From NCBI GenBank assembly GCA_043815665.1, contig JBDRIT010000099.1, positions 15,987 to 79,986 on the forward strand: DNA of 64,000 bases, written 5' to 3'. Position numbers and translations under genes: made by a program. Shown here piece after piece: positions 17,101-54,086 of this stretch. The stretch is from Pseudomonadota bacterium. GTDB lineage: Bacteria; Myxococcota_A; UBA9042; CAIXZC01. The first letter of the stretch is position 1. Each line of letters begins with the position of its first letter. The notes beneath the pieces are model-generated. The model had not been told where the DNA came from and ran no database searches. It was given only the letters and a program-made list of their open reading frames with translations.

Positions 17101-18102
17101 GAGTGCGGGGACGACGGCTGCGGAGGATCCTGCGGCGGGTGTTCCCAGGGCGAGGAGTGCGTCCTCGGTCATTGCGGAGCCCCCTGCCAACCCGATTGTG
17201 CGGGCAAGGAATGCGGCGGGGACGGCTGCGGAGGCCCTTGCGGCGACTGCGCCGAGGGCACCACCTGCAGCGAGGACCAGGAATGCCTCGATCCCTGCGT
17301 CGGTGTCGGCTTCGAGGGCTGCTGCAACGGAACCACCCTCCATTACTGCGACGCGAACCACGTCATGGAGGTCGACTGCGCGGCCCAGGGCCTCGTCTGC
17401 GGGTGGATGGACAACGTCGGCTGGTACGACTGCACGACGCAGGTCCTCGAAGACCCGTCGGGGGAGCATCCCCTCTGGTGCGACACCGCCTGCAAGCCGG
17501 ACTGTGAAGACAAGGGATGTGGCACCGACGGGTGCGGTGGGACCTGCGGCGACTGCGACGCCGGTGAGACCTGCGGTGACGAGGGCGTCTGTGAGCCGCC
17601 GTGCCCCGATCTCCCGCTGACGGGCTGCTGCGACGGCGACGTCCTGGCCTACTGCGACATCATGGGCGGCGGTGAGGACCAGGCGGACTGCTCCGCCGAC
17701 GGTCTGCGCTGCGGTTGGGACCCGAACGTCGAGAGGTACAACTGCGTCGCGAACCAGACCGCGGACCCCTCCGGGGAGCACCCCCTCTGGTGCCCCGGGG
17801 CCTGCGACCCGGACTGCGAGGGACGGAGCTGCGGCGACGACGGCTGCGGCGGATCCTGCGGCAGCTGCGTGCCGGGCTTCACCTGCGGCGGGGACTTCAT
17901 CTGCACCCTCATGATGCCTGGGGATGACGTCGTCACGGGAGACGGGAGCGGCGGGAACGGCGAGGGGAACGGCGGCGGGACCCGCAGCTCCGGCGGCTGT
18001 GCGGCGGCCGCGCCCGGCGCCGACCCGGGGACGCCTGCGGCCCTGCTGCTAGGAGCGTGTTGCGCATTGCTTCTCCTGCTGCGAATCCGCCTGGAGGCAC
18101 CG
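14200..18102 (+). CDS. Module 1 of ORF 14200..21000: secreted gingipain-like C25 cysteine peptidase with propeptide, Ig/FN3-like domains, Cys-rich repeats and a MYXO-CTERM-like anchor (no stop codon)
   Basis: Signal peptide MHARLLGLALLVCMSPNPAKA; PGLPALP propeptide; YVLLVGD, IGRFS, YLGHGS (His), DVSCSNG (Cys), YVIFGDP; ends GGCAAA..ALLLGACCALLLLLRIR. Confidence 0.8.
17293..17793 (+). repeat. Two copies of a ~63-aa Cys-rich unit (GCCxG..L.YC...DC...GL.CGW....Y.C.....DPSGEHPLWC) separated by a CGxDGCGGxCG unit
   Basis: Seen in translation; both copies end in near-identical DNA (GGGGAGCAyCCCCTCTGGTGC). Confidence 0.75.
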
Positions 18103-21000
18103 ATGCGATTCGTCCTCTTCCTCGCACTTTGTGGTCTCTGGGCCAGCGCCGCATCCGCCGCGCCAGGTCCCGAGCTCACGCCCCACCCGCAGCTCCCCGG
18201 CGTGCTCCTGGTGAACCCGGTGGTGCTGGAGCTCCCGCTCCTCTCGCCGCCGCTCCTTCGTCCCGCAGCGCCGATGGGACCGCCCGAGATCCCCCCGACC
18301 ACCCCGATCCCCGAGGCCGCGGACGTCCAGGCCCACCTCCGCCACGCGGTGCGTCTCCCCGCCGGGGAGGCCCTGGTCTTCCGCTACGACCCTGAGGAGG
18401 GTGCCTGGTCCCGGCTGTCGGGCCCCGGGGGCCTGGTGGACGAGGCCTGGGACGCGGTGGACGCGGCCCCTGCGTGGATCCGTGAGGCCCTGGCCGCCAA
18501 CCTGGCCGATCTCCCGGCGGACCGCCAGATCGCGCTGGCGCTCCTGGTGACGGACCCGGCGGATCCACGTCACCGGGACGAGCTGGCCTTCCTCCTGGCC
18601 CGGATCGCGCCGGAGGATCTCGCCCGCCCGCAGCTCTCCCCGGACTACCTGGCCGCGCACGTTGCGCAGCTCCACGCCATGGACGCGGCCCTCGACCACG
18701 TGGAGCTCGTGGACACCGGTGACCCGGCCATGGACGACGACTTCCACACCACCGCCCGGTACATGGGGACCGAGGACGGCGAGACGATCACCTGGGAGAT
18801 CCCCCGGGAGGACTACTACTGGTCCGTGGTCCACCCCAAGCTCGACGGCGAGGAGCTCTACACCATCTCCCCCGTCACCGGCGGCTTCGCGCCCCCCCCG
18901 GCGGGGCACGACTTCCGGAGCTACTTCCTCGATCCACCACAGAGCGCCGAGACCTACACCCTCCACTGGGTCCTCCGGGCCCAGGCCTCCCACGGCCTCG
19001 GCGAGATCCCGCCAGGGTCCCTCCAGGGCTGGGGCCCGGTGAGCCGTGGTCACCTCATGGACTTCGCCGTGGATCCCCTGGTGATCACCGCGGATCCCGA
19101 GGGACGTCCGACCACCATCGAGTTCCGGGTGGGCAAGGGCACGGTCCTCGCCACCACCCTCGAGGTGGAGCGGGCCTGGGCCGACGGCACCTCCGATCTC
19201 CTCGAGAACCTCCTGCGCTACGGCCCCGGGAACGTGGTCCAGAACAAGTTCCAGAAGCACCTGATGATCCGCGACCGTGCCCCCTTCGGCCAGGAGGGGA
19301 TCACCGTCGACGTCCTGGACTCCCAGTACGTCGTCTGGCACGAGATCACCTCGGACCAGCTCGGGGAGACGGACCTCTCCGGGTACCGGAAGATCATCAT
19401 CCCCTCGGACCAGCCCGCGGCGCTGTACGAGGCCCTCGACGATCATGGTGAGGCCCTGGACGCTTGGCTGAAGGACGGCTGGCGGATCCTGGAGCTCCAC
19501 CTCGCCGCCCCCACCGCAGGGGACGCGCCCGTGGGCCTCACCCTGCCGGGAGGCTTCGCCCTGGCCGCGCCGGAGGAGACCGCAGACGCCGCCGTGGTCC
19601 TCGGGCAGCCGCCGCTGGCGTCGATCCTCAGCGGCGCCGCGATGGTCTGGGACGGGATGGACTACCCGGGCCTCTCCGGGGACCGCCCTCTGGATCCCGA
19701 CACTTTCCTCCTCGATCGGATCGGGTGGTGGGTCACCCAGAACATGTTCGACAACGTGGCCGAGTGGGGCGAGAAGCACGGGCTCCAGCCCGAGCGGTCG
19801 CTCCAGCCCGTGCGCATCGTCTTCAACCACTTCGGCAACTGCGGCGAGCTCCAGGACATGCTCACCTCCGCGTCCCGGACCCTCCTGCTGCCGGTGGTGA
19901 ACGTCGCCGACTCCAACGAGGACCACGTCTGGAACGAGTTCCTCGCAGGGGACGGGTGGCACACCTACCAGGTCTCCTGGTCCGACAGCAGCACCCACGT
20001 GGACGCGCCCTCGGTGAGTGCGGACGACCAGACCGGGGGCGGCAAGGACGTCTCCATGGTCACAGCGTACCGGGGGGACGGCCGCGTCCACAGCGTGTCA
20101 GCGCACTACACGGACACGATCACCATCACCGTCCAGGTCAAGGACGCGGCGGATCAGCCCATGGAAGGAGTCGAGATCCTCCTGTTCAGCGAGAGCTACT
20201 ACGATGACACCCAGCTCATCAGCGGCCTCTGGGGCCTCACGGACGAGGCCGGGTCCTGGACCGCGGAGGTGGGGGAGGACAACAGCTACTACGTGCGGGC
20301 TTACAGCCGCCTCGGTGAGGAGCCGGCGGATGGGGTGGCGAAGGTCATCAACGCAGCCCAGGCCCTCGCCGGGACCAAGGTCCCCGTGACCCTGCAGATC
20401 GGCGGCGCCCCGACCCCCGTCGGGCCGACCGCCCTCCAGGAGCTCCCCGCCGCCGCGGAGGACCGCTGGGTCCGGGTGCACAGCCGTCCGGTGCGGACCC
20501 TGGCCTGCGGCCTGAGCCCCTACGGCGGCATCACCTTCTGCGACGACGTCGGCGGCGGGACCGTTGATCTCCTTGTCCTGGACGAGGCGAACCACGCGGC
20601 CTGGGCGGCGGGGGAGCCCTTCGACGCCTTCTCCTTCGGCGACGACCTCGACGGAATCGAGGTGGCCGCTGCGGCCCCTCTGGACGGCCCCTGGTACGTG
20701 GTCGTACTCAACCAGGACGCCCACGACACCCGCCGCTATGTCGAGCTGGAACTGGAGGTGTTGGGCCCGCCTGAGATCCCCGAGCCCGAGCCCGAGCCCG
20801 ATCTCCGGTCCGAGCCCGATTCCGCGCCCGGCCCCGCCGACACCACGGGCCGCGCAGATTCCGGTGAAGCCAGTGCCTCTGTGGGCGGCTCTTCCTCCGG
20901 CTGCAGCGCCGGGACAACCCCCACGGGCTGGCCGCTCCTCCTGCTCCTCCTCGCCCTGACCGGGCTGCGGCGCCGTCGCGGGCAGGGAGGGCAGGCCTGA
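18103..21000 (+). CDS. Module 2 of ORF 14200..21000: secreted transglutaminase-like protein with a C-terminal MYXO-CTERM-like anchor
   Basis: GGAGG (18093-18097) then ATG 18103; signal peptide MRFVLFLALCGLWASAASA; GNCGE...DHVWNEF....WH transglutaminase-like Cys/His; tail SSGCSAG..WPLLLLLLALTGLRRRRG. Confidence 0.7.
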   Translation: MRFVLFLALCGLWASAASAAPGPELTPHPQLPGVLLVNPVVLELPLLSPPLLRPAAPMGPPEIPPTTPIPEAADVQAHLRHAVRLPAGEALVFRYDPEEGAWSRLSGPGGLVDEAWDAVDAAPAWIREALAANLADLPADRQIALALLVTDPADPRHRDELAFLLARIAPEDLARPQLSPDYLAAHVAQLHAMDAALDHVELVDTGDPAMDDDFHTTARYMGTEDGETITWEIPREDYYWSVVHPKLDGEELYTISPVTGGFAPPPAGHDFRSYFLDPPQSAETYTLHWVLRAQASHGLGEIPPGSLQGWGPVSRGHLMDFAVDPLVITADPEGRPTTIEFRVGKGTVLATTLEVERAWADGTSDLLENLLRYGPGNVVQNKFQKHLMIRDRAPFGQEGITVDVLDSQYVVWHEITSDQLGETDLSGYRKIIIPSDQPAALYEALDDHGEALDAWLKDGWRILELHLAAPTAGDAPVGLTLPGGFALAAPEETADAAVVLGQPPLASILSGAAMVWDGMDYPGLSGDRPLDPDTFLLDRIGWWVTQNMFDNVAEWGEKHGLQPERSLQPVRIVFNHFGNCGELQDMLTSASRTLLLPVVNVADSNEDHVWNEFLAGDGWHTYQVSWSDSSTHVDAPSVSADDQTGGGKDVSMVTAYRGDGRVHSVSAHYTDTITITVQVKDAADQPMEGVEILLFSESYYDDTQLISGLWGLTDEAGSWTAEVGEDNSYYVRAYSRLGEEPADGVAKVINAAQALAGTKVPVTLQIGGAPTPVGPTALQELPAAAEDRWVRVHSRPVRTLACGLSPYGGITFCDDVGGGTVDLLVLDEANHAAWAAGEPFDAFSFGDDLDGIEVAAAAPLDGPWYVVVLNQDAHDTRRYVELELEVLGPPEIPEPEPEPDLRSEPDSAPGPADTTGRADSGEASASVGGSSSGCSAGTTPTGWPLLLLLLALTGLRRRRGQGGQA

Positions 21001-32664: not shown

Positions 32665-32711
32665 TAACCAGCGTAACCTGATATAACCAGCGCAGCCTCA
32701 CTTAACCAGCG
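32665..32711 (+). repeat. Three direct repeats of TAACCAGCG with exact 19-bp period
   Basis: Copies at 32665, 32684 and 32703; 8-mer AACCAGCG again at 32873. Confidence 0.85.
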
Positions 32712-32947
32712 AGTGATATCAACGATCTCCAGTAACGACGTAGGGTGCCTTCCACCTTCACACGGTGGAAGTCACAAATCCTCCCGTCGTCCATGGCAAC
32801 CGGAGGCCCTGCCCGATTCTTCGCTTGGCAAGGACGGGTACAGGTCCGGTCGATTTTCATGCGGATTGCGTGAACCAGCGCTCAATGGCGAGGTGAAAAC
32901 CGACCGGACCTGTACCCGCACATGCAACATCGCAACTGCGTTTGGCA

Positions 32948-33372: not shown

Positions 33373-33405
33373 AGAAATGAGCCATCGACTTGATGGCTCA
33401 TTTCT
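33373..33405. promoter_or_regulatory. Perfect 14-bp inverted repeat (operator or hairpin) between the divergent acnA' and acn genes
   Basis: AGAAATGAGCCATC-gactt-GATGGCTCATTTCT. Confidence 0.7.
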
Positions 33406-33513: not shown

Positions 33514-35457
33514 ATGAGCGGCAAGAACGTGGCGAGGAAGATTCTCGAGTCCCATATCGTCGAAGGCAAGTGGGCCCCCGGCGAAGAGATCGCCATCAGA
33601 ATCGATCAGACCCTGACCCAGGACGCGACGGGAACAATGGCCTACCTCCAGTTCGAGGCCATGGGGCTGCCCCGGGTGAAGACCGAGCTGAGCGTCAGCT
33701 ATATCGATCACAACACGATCCAGATCGGCTACGAGAACGCGGACGACCACAAATACCTCCAGGGCGTGGCCTCGAAGTACGGCATCTTCCTCTCCCGCGC
33801 GGGCAACGGAATCTGCCACCAGGTCCATCTCGAGCGCTTCGGAAAGCCCGGCAAGACCCTCCTGGGTTCGGACAGCCACACGCCCACCGGCGGCGGGATC
33901 GGCATGATCGCCATGGGCGCGGGCGGCCTCGACGTCGCGGTTGCCATGGGCGGCGGCTCCTTCTACCTCACCTGCCCGAGGGTGGTGAAGATCCACCTCA
34001 CCGGGAAGTTGTCCCCCTGGGTCGCGGCCAAGGACGTGGTCCTCAAGGTGCTCGAGATCTTCAGCACCAAGGGCAACGTGAGCACGATCTTCGAGTACGG
34101 CGGGCCGGGTGTGGCCAGCCTCACGGTCCCGGAGCGGGCCACGATCACCAACATGGGCGCCGAGTGCGGCGTGACCACGTCGGTCTTCCCCAGTGACGGT
34201 GAGACCCTCCGGTTCCTCAAGGCCCAGGCCCGCGGAAGCGACTGGGTGGAACTCCTCCCCGACGCCGATGCAGCGTACGATCGCGTCGTTGAGATCGATC
34301 TCGGCGCGGTCGAGCCCATGGCTGCCGCGCCCCACAGCCCCGGAAACATCAAGACCGTCCGGGAGATCGCCGGGATCGCCGTGGACCAGGTGGCCATCGG
34401 GAGCTGCACCAACTCCTCCTACGTGGACCTCACCACCGCGGCGCGCATCCTCAAGGGGAAGACCATCAACCCCGCGGTGAGCCTGATCATCGCCCCCGGA
34501 TCCCGCCAGGTGCTGACCATGCTGACCAAGGAGGGCTCCCTCTTCGACCTCCTGTCCGCGGGGGCGCGCCTCGCCGAGAACACCTGCGGTTTCTGCATCG
34601 GGAACAGCCAATCCCCCAAGTCGGACGCCGTCTCGATCCGGACCTCGAACCGCAACTTCCTGGGCCGCTCCGGGACCAAGTCGGCCCAGGCCTACCTGGT
34701 GAGCTGCGAGACCGCCGCTGCGGCGGCGCTGACGGGGAAGCTCACGGATCCGAGGACCCTGGACATGGAGTACCCCGTGGTGGCCATGCCGGATTCATTC
34801 CTGGTGGACGACTCGATGATCGTCGCCCCGTCGGCCGAACCCGAGTCTGTGACCATCGTCCGGGGACCCAACATCGGCGATCCCCCGGTCAACGGCCCGC
34901 TCCCGGACACCCTGGACGCCAAGGTCGGGATCCACGCGGGGGACGAGATCACCACGGACCACATCATCCCCGCCGGCGCCCGCATGAAGTACCGCTCCAA
35001 CGTCCCGAAGTACTCGGAGTACCTCTTCGAGATCTACGATCCGGACTTCTACGGGCGGGCCAAGGCGATCAAGGAAGAGGGGCTTCAGGACGTCTTCGTC
35101 GCCGGGCTGAGCTACGGCCAGGGCTCGAGTCGGGAGCACGCCGCCCTCTGCCCGATGTACATGCAGGTGAAGGCGGTCATCACGAAGTCCTTCGAGCGGA
35201 TCCACATGGCCAACCTCGTGAACTTCGGAATCGTCCCCTTCGTCTTCGCCGACGTCGCCGACTACGAGCGGGTCCAGCAGGGAGACCGGCTGCAGATCGT
35301 CAACCTCCGGAGCTGCATCGCCGGCGACGGCAAGGCCCTGGTGAAGAACCTCACCCAGGGGACGGAGTTCGGGGTCACCACGGACCTCTCCGAGCGGGCC
35401 AGCCGGGTTGTCCTGGCCGGGGGCATGCTCAACTACATCAAGGAGCAGACAGCGTAA
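33514..35457 (+). CDS. Aconitate hydratase, short (~650 aa) type
   Basis: TQDATGTM, YIDHN, GNGICHQ, GSDSHT, GSCTN, CGFCIG (Fe-S Cys), TSNRNF, ITTDHI, GQGSSREHAA. Confidence 0.9.
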   Translation: MSGKNVARKILESHIVEGKWAPGEEIAIRIDQTLTQDATGTMAYLQFEAMGLPRVKTELSVSYIDHNTIQIGYENADDHKYLQGVASKYGIFLSRAGNGICHQVHLERFGKPGKTLLGSDSHTPTGGGIGMIAMGAGGLDVAVAMGGGSFYLTCPRVVKIHLTGKLSPWVAAKDVVLKVLEIFSTKGNVSTIFEYGGPGVASLTVPERATITNMGAECGVTTSVFPSDGETLRFLKAQARGSDWVELLPDADAAYDRVVEIDLGAVEPMAAAPHSPGNIKTVREIAGIAVDQVAIGSCTNSSYVDLTTAARILKGKTINPAVSLIIAPGSRQVLTMLTKEGSLFDLLSAGARLAENTCGFCIGNSQSPKSDAVSIRTSNRNFLGRSGTKSAQAYLVSCETAAAAALTGKLTDPRTLDMEYPVVAMPDSFLVDDSMIVAPSAEPESVTIVRGPNIGDPPVNGPLPDTLDAKVGIHAGDEITTDHIIPAGARMKYRSNVPKYSEYLFEIYDPDFYGRAKAIKEEGLQDVFVAGLSYGQGSSREHAALCPMYMQVKAVITKSFERIHMANLVNFGIVPFVFADVADYERVQQGDRLQIVNLRSCIAGDGKALVKNLTQGTEFGVTTDLSERASRVVLAGGMLNYIKEQTA

Positions 35458-35511
35458 GGACTGCTGCTCGGAGATCGACGGAAATCATGGGCACCAACTA
35501 AGGAGTTGAAG

Positions 35512-36777
35512 ATGGCACAGAAGGGAATCAGAGAGTACGACGCCAAGCGGATGCTGGCGCGCAACCTGGAGAAGTACTTCGGTGGAACCTACGGTTATCA
35601 GGGCCAGATCGTCCTGACCGATCAGGGAACCGACTGGGACGCGCTCGCGGCGCAGAACCCGTGGCTCCTCAACACTCCGCTCGTCGCCAAGCCGGATCAG
35701 CTCTTCGGCAAGCGGGGCAAGCACGGGCTCCTCTACGTCAACAAGTCCTACGCCGAGGTGAAGGAGTGGATTCAGGGGCGGATGGAGAAGGAGGTCACCG
35801 TCGGGAAGACCACCGGCACCCTCACGCACTTCATCATCGAGCCCTTCGTGCCCCACGACAACGAGTACTACGTCGCGATCAAGTCGACCGTGACCGGGGA
35901 CACGATCTTCTTCTCGACCCAGGGCGGCATCGACATCGAGTCCGTGTGGGACACCGTGGTCGAGATCCCCGTGGCGGTGGACGAAGACGTCGAGGACATC
36001 GACATCGGCGCCAGGCTCCCCGTGAGCCTGGGCGATGCGAACAAGGCCCTGGTGGCGAACTACATCAAGGGCCTCTTCAAGTTCTACGTCGACTTCCACT
36101 TCGCCTACCTGGAGATCAACCCCTTCGCGGTGAGCGGCGACCAGGTCATCCCCCTGGATCTCGTGGCCAAGCTCGACGACACGGCCCAGTTCGAATGCGT
36201 CGTGCAGTGGGGAGACCTCTCCTTCCCAGCGCCCTTCGGCCTCCAGATGAGTCCCGAGGAGGCCTACATTCGGGACCTGGACGAGAAGACCGGCGCCTCC
36301 CTGAAGCTCACGGTCCTCAACAAGGACGCCCGGATCTGGTCCCTCGTCGCGGGGGGCGGCGCCAGCGTGATCTTCGCGGACACCATCGCCGACCTCGGGG
36401 CCGCCGGGGACCTTGCCAACTATGGTGAGTACAGCGGGGATCCGAGCAAGGAGTTCACCTACGAGTACACCAAGACCGTGCTCGACCTGATGACCCGGAC
36501 GAAGCACCCGGACGGCAAGGTCCTGCTCATCGGCGGCGGCATCGCCAACTTCACCGACATCGCCAAGACCTTTGCGGGCATCATCCAGGCGCTGACGGAG
36601 TATGCCGTTCGTCTCGCCGATCACGGCGTCAAGATCTACGTGCGCCGCGCAGGTCCCAACTACCAGGAGGGCCTCCGGCTCATGCGGGAGCTGGGGGAGC
36701 GGACTGCGCTCCCCATCGAGGTCTACGGACCCGAGACCCACATGACGAAGATCGTCTCCATGGCCCTGGGCAAGTAG
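35512..36777 (+). CDS. aclB: ATP-citrate lyase beta subunit (ATP-grasp plus citrate-binding domain)
   Basis: MAQKGIREYDAK, LVAKPDQLFGKRGKHGL, YLEINP, ASLKLTVLN, VAGGGAS, NYGEYSG, GGGIANFT, GPNYQEGL. Confidence 0.93.
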   Translation: MAQKGIREYDAKRMLARNLEKYFGGTYGYQGQIVLTDQGTDWDALAAQNPWLLNTPLVAKPDQLFGKRGKHGLLYVNKSYAEVKEWIQGRMEKEVTVGKTTGTLTHFIIEPFVPHDNEYYVAIKSTVTGDTIFFSTQGGIDIESVWDTVVEIPVAVDEDVEDIDIGARLPVSLGDANKALVANYIKGLFKFYVDFHFAYLEINPFAVSGDQVIPLDLVAKLDDTAQFECVVQWGDLSFPAPFGLQMSPEEAYIRDLDEKTGASLKLTVLNKDARIWSLVAGGGASVIFADTIADLGAAGDLANYGEYSGDPSKEFTYEYTKTVLDLMTRTKHPDGKVLLIGGGIANFTDIAKTFAGIIQALTEYAVRLADHGVKIYVRRAGPNYQEGLRLMRELGERTALPIEVYGPETHMTKIVSMALGK

Positions 36778-36782
36778 GAGGA

Positions 36783-38639
36783 ATGACAATGGAGAATTAC
36801 AGGCTGTTCGACAGAAATACCCAGGCGGTGATTTTCGGACTTCAGACCAACGCGATCCAGCGCATGCTGGACTTCGACACCATCTGCAAGCGGGATCTCC
36901 CCAGCGTGGCCGCCATCATCAACCCCACCTCCAAGGGCGGGCTGCACAAGGCCTTCTTCGCGAAGACCGAGGTCATGATCCCGATCTACCGGACCACAGG
37001 AGAGGCCCTGAAGGCCAACCCGGCCATCGACACCATGGTCAACTTCGCGTCCTTCCGCTCCGCCTATCCGACGACTATGGAGGCCCTGGATCATGATCAG
37101 CTGCGGGTGATCGCGGTCATCGCCGAGGGCATCCCGGAGCGTTACTCCAAGGCCATCCGCGCCAAGGCCCAGAAGAAGGGCGGCAAAATCCTCATCGGAC
37201 CCGCCACCGTCGGCGGCATGACCGCGGGGGCCTTCAAGATCGGCAACTCCGCCGGCATGCTCGACAACATCATCGAGTGCAAGCTGCACATGAGCGGCTC
37301 CGTCGGCTTCGTCTCGAAGTCGGGCGGACTCTCCAACGAGGCCAACAACATCATCGCCCGGAACGCGGACGGTCTCTGCGAGGGCATCGCCATCGGCGGG
37401 GACCGCTACCCCTTCAGCACCCTGTCCGAGCAGCTCATCCGCATGAACAAGAACCCGGACATCAAGATGCTGGTGCTCCTGGGCGAGGTCGGCGGCGAGG
37501 ACGAGTACTTGGTCATCGAGGCCATGAAGAATGGCCAGATCACCAAGCCCATCGTGGCCTGGTGCATCGGAACCTGCGCGGACATCTTCCCTGATGGGGT
37601 CCAGTTCGGCCACGCTGGCGCCCGCGCCGACGCCTCCCGGGAGACGTCCAGGGTCAAGAACAAGGCCCTCGCCGAGGCCGGGGCGATCGTCCCCGACTCC
37701 TTCGACGACTATGGTCTCAAGATCAACCAGGTCTACAAGAAGCTCGTCGCGGACGGCGTGATCATCGAGAAGCCTCTGCCTGCGCCACCCACGATCCCCA
37801 AGGACCTGAAGACCGCCCTCGCAGACGGCTCGGTACGCAAGGCGGCGAACTTCGTCTCCTCCATCTCCGACGATCGGGGCGACGAGCTGGCCTACGGCGG
37901 GCCCTACGGCGATCCGCGGTCCATGACCATCTCCGAAGTGTTCGAGAAGGACATCGGCCTGGGCGGCGTCATCAGCCTCCTCTGGTTCAAGAAGCTCCTG
38001 CCCCCCTGGGCGACGAAGTTCATCGAGATGGTCATCTGCATGACCGCGGATCACGGCCCCGCCGTGTCCGGCGCGCACAACGCCATCGTCACCGCGCGGG
38101 CGGGCAAGGACGTCATCTCCTGCATCGTCTCCGGCATGATGACCATCGGCCCCCGGTTCGGCGGCGCGGTGGCGGGCGCGGCGACCAACTTCAGCCAGGC
38201 CTTCGAGAGCGGCCTGAGCCCCCTGGAGTTCGTCACCAGCATGAAGAAGGCCGGGGCCAACATCCCGGGCATCGGGCATCGCATCAAGAGCGTGCAGAAC
38301 CCCGACAAGCGCGTGGAGCTCCTCGTCGACTACGGCAAGAAGAACTTCCCATCGACGACCCTCCTGGACTACGCCCTGGAGGTCGAGAAGATCACGACGT
38401 CCAAGCGCAACAACCTGATCCTCAACGTCGACGGCTGCATCGGGATCCTCTTCGTCGATCTGATGCACGCCTCGGACATGTTCTCCAAGGCGGAGATCGA
38501 CGAGGTCCTCTCCATGGAGGGCTTGAACGCCCTCTTCGTCCTGGGTCGTACCATCGGCATGATGGGACACGTGTTCGATCAGAAGCGGCTCAAGCAGCCC
38601 CTCTATCGGCACCCCTGGGACGACATCCTGTACATCTGA
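36783..38639 (+). CDS. aclA: ATP-citrate lyase alpha subunit
   Basis: MLDFD, NFASFRSA, IAEGIPE, IGPATVGG, QFGHAGA (phospho-His), ADHGPAVSGA, GIGHRIKS, LILNVDG, YRHPWDDI. Confidence 0.93.
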   Translation: MTMENYRLFDRNTQAVIFGLQTNAIQRMLDFDTICKRDLPSVAAIINPTSKGGLHKAFFAKTEVMIPIYRTTGEALKANPAIDTMVNFASFRSAYPTTMEALDHDQLRVIAVIAEGIPERYSKAIRAKAQKKGGKILIGPATVGGMTAGAFKIGNSAGMLDNIIECKLHMSGSVGFVSKSGGLSNEANNIIARNADGLCEGIAIGGDRYPFSTLSEQLIRMNKNPDIKMLVLLGEVGGEDEYLVIEAMKNGQITKPIVAWCIGTCADIFPDGVQFGHAGARADASRETSRVKNKALAEAGAIVPDSFDDYGLKINQVYKKLVADGVIIEKPLPAPPTIPKDLKTALADGSVRKAANFVSSISDDRGDELAYGGPYGDPRSMTISEVFEKDIGLGGVISLLWFKKLLPPWATKFIEMVICMTADHGPAVSGAHNAIVTARAGKDVISCIVSGMMTIGPRFGGAVAGAATNFSQAFESGLSPLEFVTSMKKAGANIPGIGHRIKSVQNPDKRVELLVDYGKKNFPSTTLLDYALEVEKITTSKRNNLILNVDGCIGILFVDLMHASDMFSKAEIDEVLSMEGLNALFVLGRTIGMMGHVFDQKRLKQPLYRHPWDDILYI

Positions 38640-38774
38640 GAGGCCACACAGCTCATGTACGACGGCTGCACGCAGTTCTACTCGGCCGGGAACAATCTGA
38701 CCACGGACCTGGGCGGCGACGGAACGACAAACAGCGTCGGCGCCGCGGTGCAGGAGATCATCCGCGCCGGATAG
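38640..38774 (+). pseudogene. 3' remnant of an isocitrate/isopropylmalate dehydrogenase-family gene
   Basis: Translates EATQLMYDGCTQFYSAGNNLTTDLGGDGTTNSVGAAVQEIIRAG*; LTxDLGGxxTT is the family's C-terminal signature; no N-terminal part present. Confidence 0.65.
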
Positions 38775-38807
38775 GATCTTCCGTCAGAGCCGCGGGGGGA
38801 GTTCTAC

Positions 38808-41800
38808 ATGGCCAGAAAGACGTGGCAGGACATCTACGCCGACAAGCTGGTCCCCCCTCAGGAGGCCCTCTCGAGGATCCGGAGCGGTCAAACCATCTTC
38901 GTCGGAGCCGGCGCATCGGAGCCCCTCCTGCTCTCCGATGCGCTGGCAGACATGGCCAGGCAGTTCGCGGACATCGACATCATCCGCCTCTTTGCGCCGG
39001 GCAAGAGATCCAGGCTCGCCGATCCGGATCTGGCTCGGAGCTTCCACACCAACACCTTCTACCACGGCCGCGGGGTCTCCGGGGTGAAGGTCAACGCCAT
39101 CGGCGACTACACCCCCATGAACCTGGTGGATCTCCCCCGGGCGTTCACCTCGGGGATCGTCCGCGTCGACGCAGCCCTCGTTCAGGTGGCCCCGCCCAAC
39201 GCGCTCGGTCTCTGCAGCCTCGGGGTCTCCGTGGACGCGACGAAGGCCGCCGTGGAGAGCGCCCCCCTGGTCATCGCCCAGGTCAACGAGAACATGCCGG
39301 AAACCACTGGGGATTCCCTGATCCCCGTGGACAGCATCGACTTCCTCGTGGAGGGAACGGCGGAGCTCTCCGAGGTACCCATCACCGAGATCGACCCGGT
39401 GTCCCTCACCATCGGACGGCACATCGCCGGCCTCATCGAGAACGGGATGACCCTCCACTTCGACCGGGGTCCCATCGGGGCCGCCACCATGCGGTACCTG
39501 GACACCCGGCGGGACCTTGGGATCCACACGGACATCCTCACCGACGACATCCTGCGCCTCATCGAGTCCGGCGCCATCAACAACCGCAAGAAGCGGGTCC
39601 ATAAGGGGAAGACCATCGCGACCACGGCCCTGGGGACCCGGCGCCTCTACGATGCCGTGAACCAGAGCCCCGCCATTGAGTTCTACCCCGTGGACCACGT
39701 CAACGACCCCTGGGTCATCGCAGAGAACGACGAGATGGTGTGCGTCCACGCCATCCAGCGGATCGAGCTGACGGGCCTGGCCCGGATGGATGACGAATAT
39801 GTCACCCAGAGGCAGAACCTCCCGAGCAGCACGGACTTCGTCCACGGCGCCAGGCGCTCGAAGAACGGATTCAATATCATGGCCCTCCCATCCACCACCG
39901 AGGACGGACGCCAGTCCCGGATCGTGGGCCTCAGCATCGGCCGGGGGGCTGCGATCCCGCGGTCCATGGCGGAGTATGTCGTCACGGAGTACGGGATCGT
40001 CAACCTCTTCGGGCTGTCGATCCGGGAGCGCGCCATCGCGCTGATCTCCATCGCCCATCCGAAGTTCCGCGGCCAACTCCAGGACGAAGCCCGGAAATTC
40101 GGCTACGTCGGCCCCGAGGAGATCGTGGCGCCGGATTCTGGTCGGCTCTACCCCCACCATTATGAGTCCACCCACACCTTCGACGACGGCACCGAGGTCT
40201 TCTTTCGCCCTGTCCGCCCGGGGGACGCGAGGAGACTGCAGCAGCTCTTCTACTCCCTCTCCCCGGAGGCGACGCGCCTGCGGTACCACGGAACCAAGAG
40301 CGCCCTCCCCAGAGGAGAAGCGCAACAACTGGCGACAGTGGACTACAGCCAGGACATGGCCATCGTCGGGCTGGTGGGCCCCCGCGCGAACCCGTGGATC
40401 GTCGGGGAGGGCAGATATACCTACAATCCGGCCAACAACATGGGGGAGTTCGACATCGTGGTCCACGGGGAGTACCGGGGACGCGGCGTAGCGACCTTCC
40501 TGGCGGCCTACCTCAACAAGATCGCGTACTCCGCCGGCCTCTCCGGGATGTACGCCCTGGTCATTCAGCAGAACTCCGGAACCATGGCTCTCCTGAACAA
40601 AGCCTGGCCGACGGCCCTGAAGACCTTCGATTCCGGAGTCTGCACCTTCACGGTTCGCTTCCCGGAGGACGACGTCAAGCGGCCCAAGGACAGCATCTTC
40701 ATCTACTCCGGCCGTTTCAGCGAACACAGCTTCGGCGAGAATCATCCCTTCGATCCGAGTCGGGCCCGGGAGACCCGCAGGACGATCGTCGAAGGAGGCA
40801 TGCTCAACGAGCCGTGGATCCGGGAAGAGGAACCCGTCATGATCCCGAAGGAGCGCCTCGTCGAATCCCACAACCCTGAGTACATCGACGCCCTTGAGGC
40901 GGCCGATCCGAACGAGTGGCGGGATGAGCTCATCCTGTTCAATCTGGGGACGGACGACTGTCCGATCTTCCACGGCCTCTTCGACTTCGTCCTCCTCTAC
41001 TCCTCGGCCACGGCGACCGGTGTCGACCTGATCATGAAGGAGAACGCCAACGTCGTCTTCAACCCCATCGGAGGGTTCCACCACGCCAGCCGATCCCGGG
41101 CGGAGGGCTTCTGCTACGTCAACGACGCGATCCTGGCCATCGACATGTTCCTCGCCGGAGGATACCGGGTCGCGTACGTCGACATCGACGCCCACCACGG
41201 CAACGGCGTCCAGGACGCCTACTACAAGGACGATCGAGTCCTCGTCATCTCCACCCACGAGAGCGGAGAGACCCTCTATCCATGGTCGGGCTTCGAGACC
41301 GAGATCGGAGAGGACGGCGGCGAGGGCTTCACCCTGAACATCCCGCTCCTCGCGGGCTGCGACGACGAGACGTTCCTGCGCGCCATCGACCGCCTGGTGA
41401 CCCCCGCGGTCACCGCCTTCGAGCCGACGGTGGTCGTGGCGGTCATCGGGACCGACACCCATCGCGCGGATCCCCTCTCCAACCTCTCGCTGACCAACAA
41501 CGGCATGTTCTCCGCGGTGGAACGGATCCGGGAGTACAGCAAGCACCTGCTCCTCCTCGGTGGTGGCGGATACGAGACCCGCACCGCGTCACGAGGATGG
41601 AGCCGGATGTGGGGCGCTGCGAACCGCATCGGGTCCCTCCCGGACTGGCTCCTCCTCATGGGGGGTCGCTTCCTGGAGGGCAGCTCCATGGATGGCGGCA
41701 GCAGCATCGTCGACATGAACTACGTCGTCTCCGGAAAGGCAAAGACAGAGATGTTCGCAGATCTGGACAGGATCATCGCGTTCCACGAGGAGCACACGCT

Positions 41801-41831
41801 CCCGCGCATCCGCACCCGGTTCAAGAGCTGA
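38808..41831 (+). CDS. Triple fusion: acetyl-CoA hydrolase/CoA-transferase-like domain, GNAT acetyltransferase and AcuC/HDAC-family deacetylase
   Basis: aa ~1-430: SLGVSVD, IAQVN..MP.T.G, YVVTEYG, RA.ALI.IAHP.FR. aa ~450-620: FRPVRPGD, YRGRGVA motif A. aa ~630-1007: GGFHHA, GFCYVND, DIDAHHGNG, DTHRADPL, GGGGY. Confidence 0.9.
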   Translation: MARKTWQDIYADKLVPPQEALSRIRSGQTIFVGAGASEPLLLSDALADMARQFADIDIIRLFAPGKRSRLADPDLARSFHTNTFYHGRGVSGVKVNAIGDYTPMNLVDLPRAFTSGIVRVDAALVQVAPPNALGLCSLGVSVDATKAAVESAPLVIAQVNENMPETTGDSLIPVDSIDFLVEGTAELSEVPITEIDPVSLTIGRHIAGLIENGMTLHFDRGPIGAATMRYLDTRRDLGIHTDILTDDILRLIESGAINNRKKRVHKGKTIATTALGTRRLYDAVNQSPAIEFYPVDHVNDPWVIAENDEMVCVHAIQRIELTGLARMDDEYVTQRQNLPSSTDFVHGARRSKNGFNIMALPSTTEDGRQSRIVGLSIGRGAAIPRSMAEYVVTEYGIVNLFGLSIRERAIALISIAHPKFRGQLQDEARKFGYVGPEEIVAPDSGRLYPHHYESTHTFDDGTEVFFRPVRPGDARRLQQLFYSLSPEATRLRYHGTKSALPRGEAQQLATVDYSQDMAIVGLVGPRANPWIVGEGRYTYNPANNMGEFDIVVHGEYRGRGVATFLAAYLNKIAYSAGLSGMYALVIQQNSGTMALLNKAWPTALKTFDSGVCTFTVRFPEDDVKRPKDSIFIYSGRFSEHSFGENHPFDPSRARETRRTIVEGGMLNEPWIREEEPVMIPKERLVESHNPEYIDALEAADPNEWRDELILFNLGTDDCPIFHGLFDFVLLYSSATATGVDLIMKENANVVFNPIGGFHHASRSRAEGFCYVNDAILAIDMFLAGGYRVAYVDIDAHHGNGVQDAYYKDDRVLVISTHESGETLYPWSGFETEIGEDGGEGFTLNIPLLAGCDDETFLRAIDRLVTPAVTAFEPTVVVAVIGTDTHRADPLSNLSLTNNGMFSAVERIREYSKHLLLLGGGGYETRTASRGWSRMWGAANRIGSLPDWLLLMGGRFLEGSSMDGGSSIVDMNYVVSGKAKTEMFADLDRIIAFHEEHTLPRIRTRFKS

Positions 41832-49131: not shown

Positions 49132-52100
49132 TTAGTCATCCAGGCATTTCGTAGGAATCACGCACTCACGGGCGGAGGGATGGCCCTCGGCGTCCAGGCC
49201 CCCCAGGACGAGGCCCGTACGGGCCTTGGTGTCCCAGATCGTGAGGAGCGCCTCACCGGCGGTGCACTCCGCCGGCGGCGCGTCGAGAGGAATGACCTGG
49301 GCGGGATCGTCCCCGTCCAGGATCAGGACTGCGGCCCGGGCCCCATCGGCGATCAGGAGACGATCCGCCTGGGGGTCGAAGGCCGCAGGGAGCCAGGGGG
49401 AGGCCGTCCACGGCAACGATCCCAGGAGCTTCACGGTCCCCAGGTTCGTACGGATCAGGTTGACGGCCCCACCGCTGCCCTGCCCACCCGCGACGATCAG
49501 ATCGCCATCAGCGCGCACGAAGAGGTGGTGGCCATACCGGGCCGCGGGGGGCGCGGCGAGGGGGACCAGGGACCAGGCGCCGGTCTCCAGCTCCAACCGC
49601 CAGAGATCGTTCGCCATCCCCGTAGCGGTCAGGCCCCCGAACACCCAGAGGGTCGCATCGGACAATCGCACAGCGGCGGCGTGTCCCGCGCGCTGGAGGG
49701 GCGCCTGGGGGGCAAGAGGTCCGCAGCCCCCCAGGTCCTCCCAGACGCCGCTGGCCCGGTGGAAGGCGTGGAAACCACAGATGGGCACCAGGGGAACCGG
49801 CGCGTCCGCCGCATCCGCGGCGACGCCTCCGATCAGCAGGTACCGATCCTGAACTGGATCGTGACTCAGGGAGGAGAACGCGGCAGGAGGTCCTCCCGTC
49901 GGTGCCGCGAGGGTCCACGGGGCGCCGGGGCCCTCGCGGCACCAGACGTCCTCGGTCCACACGGGCCCCTCGGTCCCGGTGGCGACGCCACCGGCGAGAC
50001 AGATCTCCCCATGGAGCACGTCCACAGCCGCGGCAGCACCCACGCGGGCGGACGGACGCGGGCCATCCACGGGAACCCACGCCGGGCCGCCGCCGGTGAG
50101 CGGCGTCATCCACGCGTCCTGCAGGGCCGCGCCGGCCGGGTCGAAGCCACCGGCGAGGAGGAGCCCGTCCCCGATCACCCCCAGGAGTGGCTCGGTCCGC
50201 TGGGGACCACCCTCGCCCAGCAGGGTCCACTGGTGGTGGTCGAGCTCGTAGACCCAGAGATCCCCGTGGACCGTGCCGTCAGGGGTGCGACCGCCATAGA
50301 GCACGACCCCCGTCGGAACTGCGGTGAGTCCGAAGCCATCCCTGGGCAGGGGAGATGGACCATCGGGCTCCATCGGAGCGACCACCGACGCGTCCAGCTC
50401 CACTTCCCACAGGAGGTGGAAAGGCAGATCTGCGGCGAGGCTCCCCAGGACCAGCGCGATCGCGCCGCCGGGGCACTGGACCGCGACGGATCGGGCCGGT
50501 GCGTTGAAGCCGTCGAGGGGCTCTACGGAGGACAGGTCCGGGCTGAGGCGGAGATCCGGCGCCGGGGACTTGCTGGAGGTGAGACCGCCGATGAACCAGA
50601 TCGCACCGGTCCCTGGCTCCACCAGGGCGGAGTGACCGGCGCGATTCGCCACCCCCGGGGGCAGCTCCACCGCTGCGCCGGCGCTCAGGGGATCCGGGAG
50701 CAGCCACGCGCCTTCGGCGGGCCCGGCGCCGCAGCGGCCCCCGACCAGGAGATGCCCGCCGGCGGCCCACGCGTGGACCAGGGTCCCCTCCGACCGCGGC
50801 GCCGCACCGACGTCGCCCTTCGCTGTCCATGCTCCGTCGGGCCCGAGGAGCCAGAGATCGCCGCTGCACGCGCTCTCCCCCGCAGACGGCAGGGTCTCCT
50901 GCTCCAGGCCACCCAGGACCACGAGCCCCCCGGCGCCTGCGCCCACCGAGGCTGCGCCCCGCGTGGGAGGCGGCGTCCCCGGGAAGGCTGCCTCCCACGC
51001 GGGGGAGAGGGTCTTGTCGAGGAACTCGTCCACCTTGCCGTCGCAGTCGTTGTCCAGACCGTCGCAGATCCCTTCCGAGGCCTGGTAGCCCGGGATCCCG
51101 TCGAACTCACAGACCCAGCTCCCCTCTTCGCAGAGCGCGATGGTGGCCAGGGCCCCCCTGCACACACCCTTCGAGGGGCAGACATCCAGGGGTGGAGCCG
51201 GATCCTCGTCGATGGCCCCGTCGCAGTCGTTGTCCACGAGATCGCAGGCCTCGGGGAGGGCCTCGTCGGCCGACCCCCCGGGATCCGTGGAGCAGATCGT
51301 CGCGCCGGTGTCCGAGCGGCACTCCACCTTGCCGTTGCCGCAGGGGCCCACCCCGTTGCAGGGATCGCCGAGCCCCTTGCCGTCGTAGGTCAGCTCCTCG
51401 TCGGTCTCCCCGTCGCAGTCATTGTCCAGGCTGTCGCAGGACTCCGCTTCGAGGATCGACCAGGAGGAGCAAACGGCCTCGCTGCGATCCGCGGAACAGA
51501 TCACCTTTCCGCTCGCACAGGTGCCGGTGCCACACTCCTCGCCGATGCCCTTCGCTGCCCCGTCGAAGTCCTCGATCTCGAAGCCCTCGTCGGTCTCCCC
51601 GTCGCAGTCGTTGTCTTTTGCGTCGCACGAGGCCTCCTCGCCGGGCTCGAAGGGGGCGTCCACCTCGGGAGCCAGCGCGCAGGACCAGTTGCCCGTATCG
51701 CACCGTGCCAGGAGGGCCTCCCAGTGGACTGCGCAGACCCCTGTGTCGGGGCAGGCCAGCTCCGCGGGACCGATGAGGTCCTCGTCGGTCTTGCCGTCGC
51801 AGTCGTTGTCCAGCGCGTCGCATTGCTCAGGCTGGGACTTGTCCTTGGTGCCATAGGGACCCGTGGAGCAGAACGCGGAGAGGCCGTTGTACGCACACTC
51901 CACGACACCGGCGCCGCAGATCCCCGGCGCGACGCAGGACTCCCCCATGTGATGGCCCTGGTAGAGGTAGCCGTCGTCGATGATGCTGTCGCAGTCGTCG
52001 TCCTTGCCGTTGCAGAACTCGGTCACCGCTGGGCTCTCAGAGCCCCCGGGCGCGGTGGAGCAGAGGGGAGCGAGGAGCTCCGGGTGGCACTCCACGGTTC

Positions 52101-52743
52101 CGGGGCCGCAGATCCCCGCAGCGAGGCAGCCCTCCCCGAGGGGATATCCTTCCCAAGCCAGGCCCTCGTCGGTCTCTCCGTCGCAGTCCTCGTCCTGCTG
52201 ATCGCAGTCCTCCTCCTGCCTCGGCACGGGCGTCCCGTCAGGCCAGGCGCACACGGCGTCCCCGTCCACACAGACCAGGGTGAGGTCGTCCCATAGCGCA
52301 GCGCAGCGGCCTTGGGTCGGACAGAGCAGCAACCGGGCGAAGCTCTGATCCGCCGGGTCCGCAGCGGCATCGTTGGGGTCGAGATGATCGGGGATGCAGT
52401 CCCCGTCCGCGTCGTCCAGTGCGCTCTCCAGAACATCGGGGATGCCGTCCCCGTCCGTGTCCTTCGGGGTCACATCGGCGCCCCACTCCTCGCCATCCCC
52501 GTACCCGTCACCGTCGGTGTCGAAGTTCAGCGGAGAGGAGCCCACCGCCACCTCCCAGCCCGTGGGGATCCCGTCCCAGTCCGGATCCCCGTCCTCGTCG
52601 CGGCACTCACCGAGCGCACAGACCGTGCCCTTGAGGCAATCCCCCTGCGTAATGCAGGACCCGGGCGCGTCCGTCCCGGTCGGCTCCGCGCACGCGGCGA
52701 ACCCGAGGGTCATGAGAATGGAGAGTAGATGGCGTCGTGACAT
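49132..52743 (-). CDS. Large lipoprotein: TSP3-like Ca-binding motifs, seven MopE-like repeats and a Kelch-type beta-propeller
   Basis: LGFAAC lipobox; DTDGDG motifs; seven C(D/N)xxD(N/E/D)DCD repeats; C-terminal GG..W Kelch blades. Confidence 0.75.
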   Translation of the reverse strand: MSRRHLLSILMTLGFAACAEPTGTDAPGSCITQGDCLKGTVCALGECRDEDGDPDWDGIPTGWEVAVGSSPLNFDTDGDGYGDGEEWGADVTPKDTDGDGIPDVLESALDDADGDCIPDHLDPNDAAADPADQSFARLLLCPTQGRCAALWDDLTLVCVDGDAVCAWPDGTPVPRQEEDCDQQDEDCDGETDEGLAWEGYPLGEGCLAAGICGPGTVECHPELLAPLCSTAPGGSESPAVTEFCNGKDDDCDSIIDDGYLYQGHHMGESCVAPGICGAGVVECAYNGLSAFCSTGPYGTKDKSQPEQCDALDNDCDGKTDEDLIGPAELACPDTGVCAVHWEALLARCDTGNWSCALAPEVDAPFEPGEEASCDAKDNDCDGETDEGFEIEDFDGAAKGIGEECGTGTCASGKVICSADRSEAVCSSWSILEAESCDSLDNDCDGETDEELTYDGKGLGDPCNGVGPCGNGKVECRSDTGATICSTDPGGSADEALPEACDLVDNDCDGAIDEDPAPPLDVCPSKGVCRGALATIALCEEGSWVCEFDGIPGYQASEGICDGLDNDCDGKVDEFLDKTLSPAWEAAFPGTPPPTRGAASVGAGAGGLVVLGGLEQETLPSAGESACSGDLWLLGPDGAWTAKGDVGAAPRSEGTLVHAWAAGGHLLVGGRCGAGPAEGAWLLPDPLSAGAAVELPPGVANRAGHSALVEPGTGAIWFIGGLTSSKSPAPDLRLSPDLSSVEPLDGFNAPARSVAVQCPGGAIALVLGSLAADLPFHLLWEVELDASVVAPMEPDGPSPLPRDGFGLTAVPTGVVLYGGRTPDGTVHGDLWVYELDHHQWTLLGEGGPQRTEPLLGVIGDGLLLAGGFDPAGAALQDAWMTPLTGGGPAWVPVDGPRPSARVGAAAAVDVLHGEICLAGGVATGTEGPVWTEDVWCREGPGAPWTLAAPTGGPPAAFSSLSHDPVQDRYLLIGGVAADAADAPVPLVPICGFHAFHRASGVWEDLGGCGPLAPQAPLQRAGHAAAVRLSDATLWVFGGLTATGMANDLWRLELETGAWSLVPLAAPPAARYGHHLFVRADGDLIVAGGQGSGGAVNLIRTNLGTVKLLGSLPWTASPWLPAAFDPQADRLLIADGARAAVLILDGDDPAQVIPLDAPPAECTAGEALLTIWDTKARTGLVLGGLDAEGHPSARECVIPTKCLDD

Positions 52744-52775
52744 CGGGGGTATTCTGCCAGGAGAGGCGTCCGTTT

Positions 52776-54086
52776 TCAACGGACGGACCGTGGGCTGCTT
52801 CGGAGGGGCGACTCGATCAGCAGCTGCACGACACGTTTCTTCCCGGCCCTGAGGAGAATCCCGGAGCCGAGCTCTGCGGGGACGACGGTGGCGGTCTCGT
52901 CCCGGATCGCATCGTCCCCGATCCGCGCGCCCCCCTGGCGCATCAGGCGCCGGGCCTCACCCTTGCTCTCGCAGAGGCCCGCCCGGACGAAGAGATCGAT
53001 GAGGGAGATCGGGGTCGCTGCCTCGGCCGCGGGCAGGATGACCTCCGGCCAGGAGACCACCGCAGTGGCGGCCTTCAGGGCGACGATGTCCGACGACGTC
53101 TCCACGATCCGTCCGGGATCCGCCTCGCCATACTCCCCGGACGCCGCAGCGAAGGCCATGGCCGCGACGGCCGCGCCGTGGGTGAGCTTCGTTACCTCGT
53201 AGGCGAGAATCTCCTTGGCCCGGTTGAGGAGCGGGGGCTGCAGGGCCCCGAGTCGCTCGCCCTCGACCGGAGGGAGATCGGTGAAGAGCTTGAGGAACCG
53301 CGCCACGTCTTCGTCCTCGGTGTTCCGCCAGAACTGGTAGTAGTCAAAGGGCTTCGTGTGCTCCGCGTCGAGCCAGATCGCGCCGGCCACGGACTTGCCG
53401 AACTTCTCCCCCGACGCGTTGGTCAGGAGGGGCAGGGTGAGGCCGCAGGCCTCCGCCTGCCGGACGCGCCGGATCAGATCCGTCCCGGCGACGATGTTCC
53501 CCCACTGGTCCTGGCCCCCGACCTGAAGGACGCAGCCCTCCTCTTCGTTCAGGACCAGGAAGTCGTACGCCTGGAGGAGCATGTAGTTGAACTCCAGGAA
53601 CGAGAGCCCGGTCTCCAGGCGGATCCTGTAGGACTCCGCGGAGAGCATCCGGTTCACGCTGAAGTGCCGACCGATGTCCCGCAGGAAGGGGATGTACTGC
53701 AGCTTCGTCAGCCAGTCCGCGTTGTTCCGCATCAGGCCGTGCACACCGTCGAGGGTCAGAAAACGGGAGAGTTGGGCTTCGAGGCCCCGCGCGTTGGCCT
53801 CGATCTCCTCGGGGGTCATCAGACGGCGGGTCTCGGTCTTCCCGCTGGGGTCCCCCACCATCGCGGTGCCCCCTCCCACCAGCCCGATGGGTCGATGGCC
53901 CCAGCGCTGGAGGATCCGCATGGCGAGGATCGGCACCAGGCTGCCCACGTGGAGGGTGACAGCGGTGGGGTCGAACCCCACGTAGAAGGTCTGGGGCCCC
54001 TCGCTCAGGAGCTCCCGCACGCGGACCTCGTCCGTGACCTGGTAGAGGAAGCCTCGCGCTTCCAGCTCGGCGTACGCGTCGTTCAT
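52776..54086 (-). CDS. tyrS: Tyrosine--tRNA ligase
   Basis: YVGFDPTA..LHVG, LLQAYDF, GGQDQWGNI, KFGKS, S4 domain. Confidence 0.97.
   Translation of the reverse strand: MNDAYAELEARGFLYQVTDEVRVRELLSEGPQTFYVGFDPTAVTLHVGSLVPILAMRILQRWGHRPIGLVGGGTAMVGDPSGKTETRRLMTPEEIEANARGLEAQLSRFLTLDGVHGLMRNNADWLTKLQYIPFLRDIGRHFSVNRMLSAESYRIRLETGLSFLEFNYMLLQAYDFLVLNEEEGCVLQVGGQDQWGNIVAGTDLIRRVRQAEACGLTLPLLTNASGEKFGKSVAGAIWLDAEHTKPFDYYQFWRNTEDEDVARFLKLFTDLPPVEGERLGALQPPLLNRAKEILAYEVTKLTHGAAVAAMAFAAASGEYGEADPGRIVETSSDIVALKAATAVVSWPEVILPAAEAATPISLIDLFVRAGLCESKGEARRLMRQGGARIGDDAIRDETATVVPAELGSGILLRAGKKRVVQLLIESPLRSSPRSVR

Follow-up and report, generated by a model that had tools for sequence, protein, structure and literature searches.

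We analysed a 64,000-nucleotide (nt) stretch of contig JBDRIT010000099.1 (assembly GCA_043815665.1), hereafter the window, and found behind its ATP-citrate lyase (ACL) genes a single open reading frame (ORF; 38808-41831, plus strand) encoding a 1007-amino-acid (aa) fusion protein. The protein matched AcetylCoA_hydro, AcetylCoA_hyd_C, Acetyltransf_1/3 and Hist_deacetyl, and these family matches confirmed the CoA/GNAT/HDAC composition that an earlier sequence-only reading of this DNA had proposed. We tentatively suggest, with slightly less than even confidence, that the fusion may be a sensor-writer-eraser switch for lysine acetylation that acts on ACL, perhaps also on its cluster partners, and on the ADP-forming acetyl-CoA synthetase (ACD) in sister clades. 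The suggestion draws on the domain make-up of the protein, the conservation of its functional residues, its gene linkage and its co-occurrence with ACL across genomes.

The N-terminal domain (residues 1-440; 38808-40127, plus strand) resembles a 4-hydroxybutyrate coenzyme A (CoA)-transferase, with Asp242 at the position of the catalytic Glu. Homology to these enzymes in the PDB extended over residues 5-452 (9vag, E = 9e-92; 3eh7; 2oas; 3gk7; RipA, 3qli), and the 9vag alignment spanned residues 10-452, including both halves of the fold. The aligned motifs of three PDB enzymes, GIGxIP, HTE and GGQxDF, read DRGPIG, HTD and PSSTDF in the window fusion. In RipA, the available text of PMC3180442 places the catalytic residue at Glu249 and a G-V227-G loop 22 residues earlier, a spacing equal to that between GIG and HTE. 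We tallied these positions in 121 members, comprising the window protein and its 120 best homologues. Of these, 109 have Asp at the catalytic position and 7 have Glu, while the remaining 5 carry some other residue; both glycine motifs, G-x-G and GGQ, are replaced throughout. Most two-domain relatives, which carry only the CoA-transferase and GNAT domains (CoAT-GNAT), keep the full transferase motif set (GIG, GGQxDF). In family I CoA-transferases, the exchange of Glu for Asp abolishes CoA transfer and leaves CoA-ester hydrolysis, according to the accessible part of PMC12400318. The Asp at the catalytic Glu position, combined with the lost glycine motifs, thus indicates that domain 1 is no transferase; it would be either a ligand-binding relic or a thioesterase. 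The domain family that the sequence-only reading had named is therefore present, though not as a working CoA-transferase (HTD, DRG, PSS).

The central domain (residues 458-622; 40179-40673, plus strand; PF00583, PF13302) is Pat-type by closest likeness and a putative protein lysine acetyltransferase. All nine of its PDB matches were Pat-type protein acetyltransferases (9it0, 9isq, 4nxy, 4u5y, 4ava, 4orf, 4oll, 4onu, and 3f8k); the strongest match was to residues 711-878 of 9it0, a Pat of 886 aa (E = 1.7e-9). The NCBIfam model for mycobacterial Pat also matched (E = 9e-16), but the score of 57 bits fell far short of the equivalog cut-off, 460. The segment YRGRGVA conforms to R/Q-x-x-G-x-G/A, and GEFD aligned with the 'AEF' of Pat; we take the former to be the acetyl-CoA loop and the Glu of the latter to be the functional acidic residue. 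This acidic position held Glu in 108 and Asp in 13 of the 121 members.

The C-terminal domain (residues 630-1000; 40695-41807, plus strand; PF00850, 252 bits) is a predicted class-I HDAC/AcuC-like zinc deacetylase. Its nearest PDB structures were HDAC2 (E = 3.5e-60), HDAC1, HDAC3, Rpd3, HDLP, Clr6 and HDAC8, and among PDB structures it appears closer to class I than to the other classes. The window protein contains the motifs GGFHHA, DIDAHHGNG, GTDTH and GGGGYE, which presumably supply the His-His pair, the Asp-His-Asp metal ligands and, in GGGGY, the catalytic Tyr. The His-His, Asp/His/Asp and Tyr positions were kept in 119-121 of the 121 members. The HDAC part is fused in the clade of the window and is a separate, adjacent gene in L010, L011, L015, L017, L032, L054, L059/L088 and L075 (L and G numbers denote our loci and genomes).

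The fusion gene is preceded on the plus strand by acn, aclB and aclA. The acn gene (33514-35457) encodes a 647-aa aconitate hydratase of the PRK07229/TIGR01342 type, with Aconitase and Aconitase_C matches and 912 bits against NCBIfam PRK07229 (cut-off 612). The product of aclB (35506-36777) is a 423-aa ATP-citrate lyase beta subunit with ATP-grasp and citrate-binding domains (Citrate_synth_N and Citrate_bind matches; PF24948, 275 bits, cut-off 83; PF16114, 286 bits), read from a TTG start that is preceded by AAGGAG. The 618-aa alpha subunit encoded by aclA (36783-38639) matches PF02629 CoA_binding, PF00549 Ligase_CoA and PF00285 Citrate_synt, and contains a GHAGA segment at residues 276-280, which we assume to be the phosphohistidine site. 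These domain sets are those of a two-subunit ATP-citrate lyase, to which we assign the predicted AclB and AclA. The intergenic gaps measure 48, 5 and 168 nt, and third-position G+C is strongly biased in all four ORFs (0.89-0.93). The co-directional order with short gaps described in the sequence-only reading holds, with a first gap of 48 nt instead of about 54. That reading had also seen no U-tailed hairpin between the genes, and a simple consensus scan of 33514-41831 likewise found no terminator-like site on the plus strand. A promoter scan returned no sigma-70-like site against 1.4 expected, which says nothing either way. The acn-aclB-aclA order, with acn first, is conserved in L086, L095, L093, L006, L148 and L212.

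The 168-nt gap before the fusion is a deletion scar and not an empty spacer. Directly after the aclA stop codon, positions 38640-38774 on the plus strand encode the last 44 codons and the stop of a 581-aa Iso_dh-type isocitrate dehydrogenase (IDH), which tblastn aligned to residues 537-580 of the IDH of L009 with 77% aa identity. This locus, from a metagenome-assembled genome (MAG) labelled uncultured Myxococcales, is the nearest relative that we fetched; its fusion is 89% identical at the aa level, and it shares the gyrA and rpsI neighbours. By blastn, window positions 38501-38644 corresponded to L009 154-297, and 38641-38900 to L009 1941-2216. The 3' ends of aclA and IDH thus abut in the window, indicating that approximately 1.6 kb were lost relative to L009. 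A contig of run X3, from a different study, spans the junction (38471-38714), so the join is unlikely to be an assembly artefact of the source genome alone. In L009, L138 and L140, aclA and the fusion are separated by an intact idh, and an IDH of another type occupies this place in L150. These arrangements suggest that the ancestral cluster was acn-aclB-aclA-idh-fusion. The end of the scar and the fusion ATG are separated by 31 nt, containing the ribosome-binding-site-like GGGGGGAG (38794-38801, plus strand; 6 nt before the ATG). Since the longer gap is mostly IDH remnant, it leaves little room for an independent promoter or terminator. Elsewhere, the source genome (G000) encodes a monomeric IDH, a citrate synthase and six POR_N matches. 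No member of PF00180 (Iso_dh, which also covers LeuB) was found in this 95.7% complete genome, where the 44-codon remnant is the sole trace of the family.

The placement behind ACL recurs. In the window, L009, L008, L138, L140, L150, L086 and L102, a CoAT-GNAT gene, with or without HDAC, stands on the same strand behind aclA or behind the pair aclA-idh; in L006, L148 and L212, such a gene is found within 2.3-3.4 kb of the ACL cluster. These ACL-linked cases fall in two separate clades, each with a Shimodaira-Hasegawa-like approximate likelihood ratio test (SH-aLRT) support of 100, and the aclA-adjacent order recurs with proteins that are merely 39-57% identical (L086, L102, L008). We examined 50 CoAT-GNAT genes of a 401-genome sample from the phylum of the window, the gene of the window included; three of them lie directly behind aclA (the window, L086 = G237, and L102 = G382), with gaps of about 130-170 nt. 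We also examined 68 metagenome ACL loci, 11 with an AclA at least 70% identical to that of the window and 57 with 55-69% identity. Among the 11, the fusion was present on the same strand in L138, L140 and L150 and on the opposite strand, 3.2 kb downstream, in L148; five were too short to tell.

Co-occurrence at the genome level pointed in the same direction. The AclB citrate-binding domain was found in 8 of the 11 genomes with a window-type fusion. In a second phylum (301 genomes), it occurred in 32 of the 49 genomes with the family vs 44 of the 252 without, and in the phylum of the window in 4 of 40 vs 2 of 361; the genomes compared are related, not independent, and Fisher values overstate the significance of these differences. 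The link to ACL is thus recurrent, not universal.

Most of the linkage of the broader family is to ACD, which directly adjoins 19 of the 50 CoAT-GNAT genes. The identification of ACD is based on NCBIfam TIGR02717 (564 bits vs a cut-off of 567) and on the presence of an SSHTGS segment. At L092, ACD lies 3.4 kb away, and the remainder of the 50 have neither ACL nor ACD nearby or stand at contig ends. The orders ACD-CoAT-GNAT-HDAC, or ACD followed by a fusion, occur in L041, L059/L088, L073 and L075. In the second phylum, 10 loci were fetched out of 44 two-domain matches, and 7 of them have an ACD gene on the same strand at most 1.6 kb away. One of these loci, L212 (G432:C70, 176-10437), carries CoAT-GNAT, ACD, acn, aclB and aclA, all on the same strand, in a stretch of 10.4 kb. 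Together with the synthetase module of ACL, ACD belongs to the succinyl-CoA-synthetase superfamily, and AclA and AclB match succinyl-CoA-synthetase models. The source genome also holds a second CoAT-GNAT gene, 40% identical, with full transferase motifs and no HDAC, behind an ACD gene (L096, G000:C138; the pair occupies 6759-8861 and 8851-10728). This ACD gene has an in-frame TAG where its relatives have Glu, which may mark a pseudogene or a strain variant, or may be a sequencing error.

The family is widespread, and in public data we found at least 120 full- or near-full-length homologues of the fusion (53-71% identity, 861-1103 aa). The few whose source is named are labelled Deltaproteobacteria, Myxococcota, Aminicenantes, Planctomycetes or Thermoplasmatota, and database entries give these proteins no name more specific than 'GNAT family N-acetyltransferase' or 'AcuC-like/acyl-CoA hydrolase'. 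Few of the 401 genomes have the three-part form (G000, G003, and, as two adjacent genes, G259), and the two-domain form occurs in 40 of them. The contig survey was seeded by HDAC motifs, so that 60 of its 80 loci were HDAC-only and HDAC-bearing forms are over-represented in it. In a quick family tree, the three-domain clade (10 rows) and the L086/L089/L102 clade each received an SH-aLRT of 100 and were not resolved as sisters; the tree omits L009 (broken), L082 (= L096), L088 (= L059) and anything shorter than 430 aa.

Taken together, these features would fit the following mechanism. The fusion is the last gene of an acn-aclB-aclA-(idh)-fusion cluster and is probably co-transcribed with it. 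Domain 1 would most likely act as a sensor that binds an acyl-CoA, a carboxylate or CoA itself, or would at most hydrolyse a thioester. The GNAT domain would serve as the writer, a Pat-type lysine acetyltransferase, and the HDAC domain as the eraser, an AcuC/class-I-HDAC-type zinc deacetylase. The sensor domain might set the balance of writer against eraser, and the fusion would in this way set the acetylation, and hence the activity, of the adjoining acetyl-CoA-producing enzyme, namely ACL here and ACD in the sister clades. The protein substrate, ACL as the target, the domain 1 ligand, the direction of control and the co-transcription are our inferences. A more specific version, which we regard as rather doubtful, holds that the dead CoA-transferase domain senses the acyl-CoA/CoA state and thereby switches one polypeptide between acetylating and deacetylating the ACL or ACD enzymes; it would place citrate cleavage in the reductive tricarboxylic acid cycle under post-translational control in both bacteria and archaea.

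Several observations weigh against a switch dedicated to ACL. The gene-neighbourhood survey for which the sequence-only reading had called showed the fusion or its relatives beside aclA in several lineages, and found the gene in none of the 57 metagenome ACL loci with an AclA identity of 55-69%. Even with a close AclA, L146 and L194 lack the fusion within the visible 3.6-3.8 kb downstream of aclA, and G137 carries the ACL cluster without the gene. ACL was not found in G401, G403 and G404, 3 of the 11 genomes with a window-type fusion; their fusions (L001, L003, L004) are the nearest relatives of the window protein in the tree. With no ACL found alongside its closest relatives, ACL cannot be the sole target of the fusion. 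G402, G405, G407, G485 and G581 carry both the fusion and ACL, but on separate contigs. At L009, the fusion gene (2124-5161) is split into three ORFs: a stop codon interrupts the frame some 229 codons in, and the reading frame shifts within the HDAC part, so that the gene is either decaying or poorly assembled. The Asp at the catalytic position of domain 1 is itself conserved, and this is as compatible with a hydrolase as with a sensor. Finally, no lysine of AclA or AclB tracked the presence of the fusion. AclB K101 and AclA K131 had looked specific in a first set and failed when more carriers were included (E at the AclB K101 position in L208 and L210, P in L091; E at the AclA K131 position in L207).

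Much of this evidence would suit a writer/eraser of general scope that responds to acetyl-CoA and has other targets, or many of them, such as AMP-forming synthetases or stress proteins, and for which ACL would be no more than a co-expressed source of acetyl-CoA. We consider this alternative unlikely. It corresponds to the idea in the sequence-only reading that ACL feeds acetylation, as distinct from control of ACL. It accommodates the three of 11 fusion genomes in which ACL went undetected, the at least five others in which it is unlinked, and the lack of a fusion-specific lysine in either subunit. It also accounts for clades of the family with other neighbours: the genes of one two-domain clade (L110, L118, L123, L137) have universal stress protein genes and a P-type ATPase as neighbours, and L111 and L124 lie beside Pta-type genes. 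Mycobacterial Pat is known to act on a universal stress protein. Such a general role leaves unexplained why, across several clades and in two phyla, the gene is found time after time directly behind aclA or behind ACD, the ACL homologue. This placement matches that of regulator-target pairs, such as acsA with acuABC in the available text of PMC13121692. Moreover, bacteria would have a single acetyl-CoA pool, to which a dedicated supplier would add little.

The fusion could instead be a metabolic enzyme acting on small molecules, combining an acyl-CoA hydrolase with the acetylation and deacetylation of a metabolite, for example an amino acid or a polyamine. The Asp found at the catalytic position in 109 of the 121 members would make sense in such an enzyme, given that Glu-to-Asp exchange turns family I CoA-transferases into hydrolases (PMC12400318, in the part available), and the HDAC superfamily includes small-molecule amidohydrolases (PMC11532494, main text). 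Most two-domain relatives, moreover, keep full transferase motifs beside ACD, a sensible metabolic pair. However, the G-x-G loop and the GGQ motif have been lost as well, the GNAT domain matches only Pat-type protein acetyltransferases among solved structures, and the HDAC part has class I protein deacetylases as its closest relatives there. If writer and eraser worked on one metabolite, they would, in addition, merely burn acetyl-CoA. We therefore judge a small-molecule role improbable.

Least credible, and in our view very improbable, is that transfer or rearrangement brought the gene to its place behind the ACL cluster, where it was kept by chance; the fusion shares just 38% identity with the three-part system found in a genome of the same genus vs 60-69% with proteins in MAGs labelled as other phyla, and the IDH gene was deleted at the very junction of aclA and the fusion, but the order recurs with strongly diverged proteins (39-57% identity) and in a second clade, and co-occurrence is enriched in both phylum samples. 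The present data thus speak against an adjacency restricted to a single recent lineage.

The surroundings of the cluster are largely housekeeping. The gyrA gene converges on the fusion, 2 nt from its stop codon, and the remaining neighbours include thrS, ATP synthase a and c, rpsI, rplM and metK. The G+C content of the window ranges from 0.63 to 0.75, and the source assembly comprises 5.8 Mb. About 110 nt before the acn start lies a perfect 14-nt palindrome with a 5-nt spacer (33373-33405), which may serve as an operator or may terminate the minus-strand ORF upstream; it had no match in 205 loci, few of which extend to that region. Farther upstream, TAACCAGCG occurs three times at 19-nt spacing (32665-32711). 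A fourth copy, AACCAGCG (32873-32880), sits inside the 34-nt loop of a 32-nt inverted repeat (32828-32859/32894-32925; 88% complementary). The 8-mer of these repeats has 8 copies in the window vs 1.75 expected, and the repeat array and the inverted repeat occupy a non-coding stretch 640-850 nt upstream of acn. Elsewhere, the window contains a 2296-aa ORF (14110-21000) and encodes a 1215-aa protein with Kelch and MopE-type metal-binding repeats (49132-52779).

In prokaryotes, the textbook example of acetylation as a means of metabolic control is acetyl-CoA synthetase, which is acetylated reversibly on lysine. To our knowledge, no comparable control has been described for ATP-citrate lyase or ADP-forming acetyl-CoA synthetase. 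Our literature search found no paper on a fused acetyltransferase-deacetylase or on the CoA-transferase-GNAT family, and the main texts of PMC11532494 and PMC13121692 make no mention of such a fusion, although their supplements might list such architectures. If the proposed switch is real, the fusion would offer a compact, expressible system for studying the balance of opposing acetylation activities, a candidate regulator of a key carbon-fixation enzyme, and an example of a CoA-transferase turned sensor.

The closest known arrangement is the AcuA-AcuB-AcuC/AcsA system of Bacillus, in which, as the available text of PMC13121692 describes it, the synthetase is switched off by a GNAT and reactivated by a deacetylase of the class I type, the eraser being tuned by a sensor protein. 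There, too, writer, sensor and zinc eraser are encoded together beside the gene of an acetyl-CoA-forming enzyme, whose activity they govern through lysine acetylation (same source), much as the ACL or ACD gene stands directly upstream of the writer/eraser gene here. The fusion differs in being one polypeptide with the order sensor-writer-eraser, in having a CoA-transferase relic as its putative sensor where the Acu sensor is a Bateman/ACT protein, and in adjoining ATP-citrate lyase or ADP-forming ACD instead of the AMP-forming AcsA. Its GNAT is Pat-type by its PDB and Pat-model matches.

Pat and CobB control AMP-forming acetyl-CoA synthetase by acetylation. The type I Pat of Salmonella and E. 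coli, which acts with CobB on Acs, resembles the fusion in its GNAT domain, which aligns to residues 711-878 of 9it0. In both proteins, a large, probably non-catalytic domain derived from a CoA enzyme precedes the GNAT (for Pat, PMC3195501). The first domain of Pat derives from an ADP-forming acyl-CoA synthetase, whereas that of the fusion derives from a 4-hydroxybutyrate CoA-transferase, and the eraser that partners Pat is a separate sirtuin instead of a fused zinc HDAC. To the family I 4-hydroxybutyrate/butyryl CoA-transferases AbfT and RipA, the fusion shows full-length homology (residues 5-452); unlike them, it has Asp for Glu, D-R-G for the G-x-G gating loop and PSSxDF for GGQxDF.

Mammalian ACLY, which is itself acetylated and feeds histone acetylation, likewise ties ATP-citrate lyase to lysine acetylation. 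The reported ACLY acetylation sites lie in a linker that the two-subunit bacterial ACL lacks, and bacteria, in contrast to mammals, have no compartments that would make ACL a private source of acetyl-CoA. AceK, the bifunctional isocitrate dehydrogenase kinase/phosphatase, combines opposing activities in one metabolite-responsive protein. The likeness to the fusion is one of idea: opposing modifying activities directed at a central carbon enzyme, in an ancestral cluster that here also contained an IDH gene. The chemistry in the fusion would be acetylation and not phosphorylation, the folds are unrelated, and the target of the fusion is putative. If the more specific version of the switch holds, the fusion would be an acetylation counterpart of AceK, so far undescribed.

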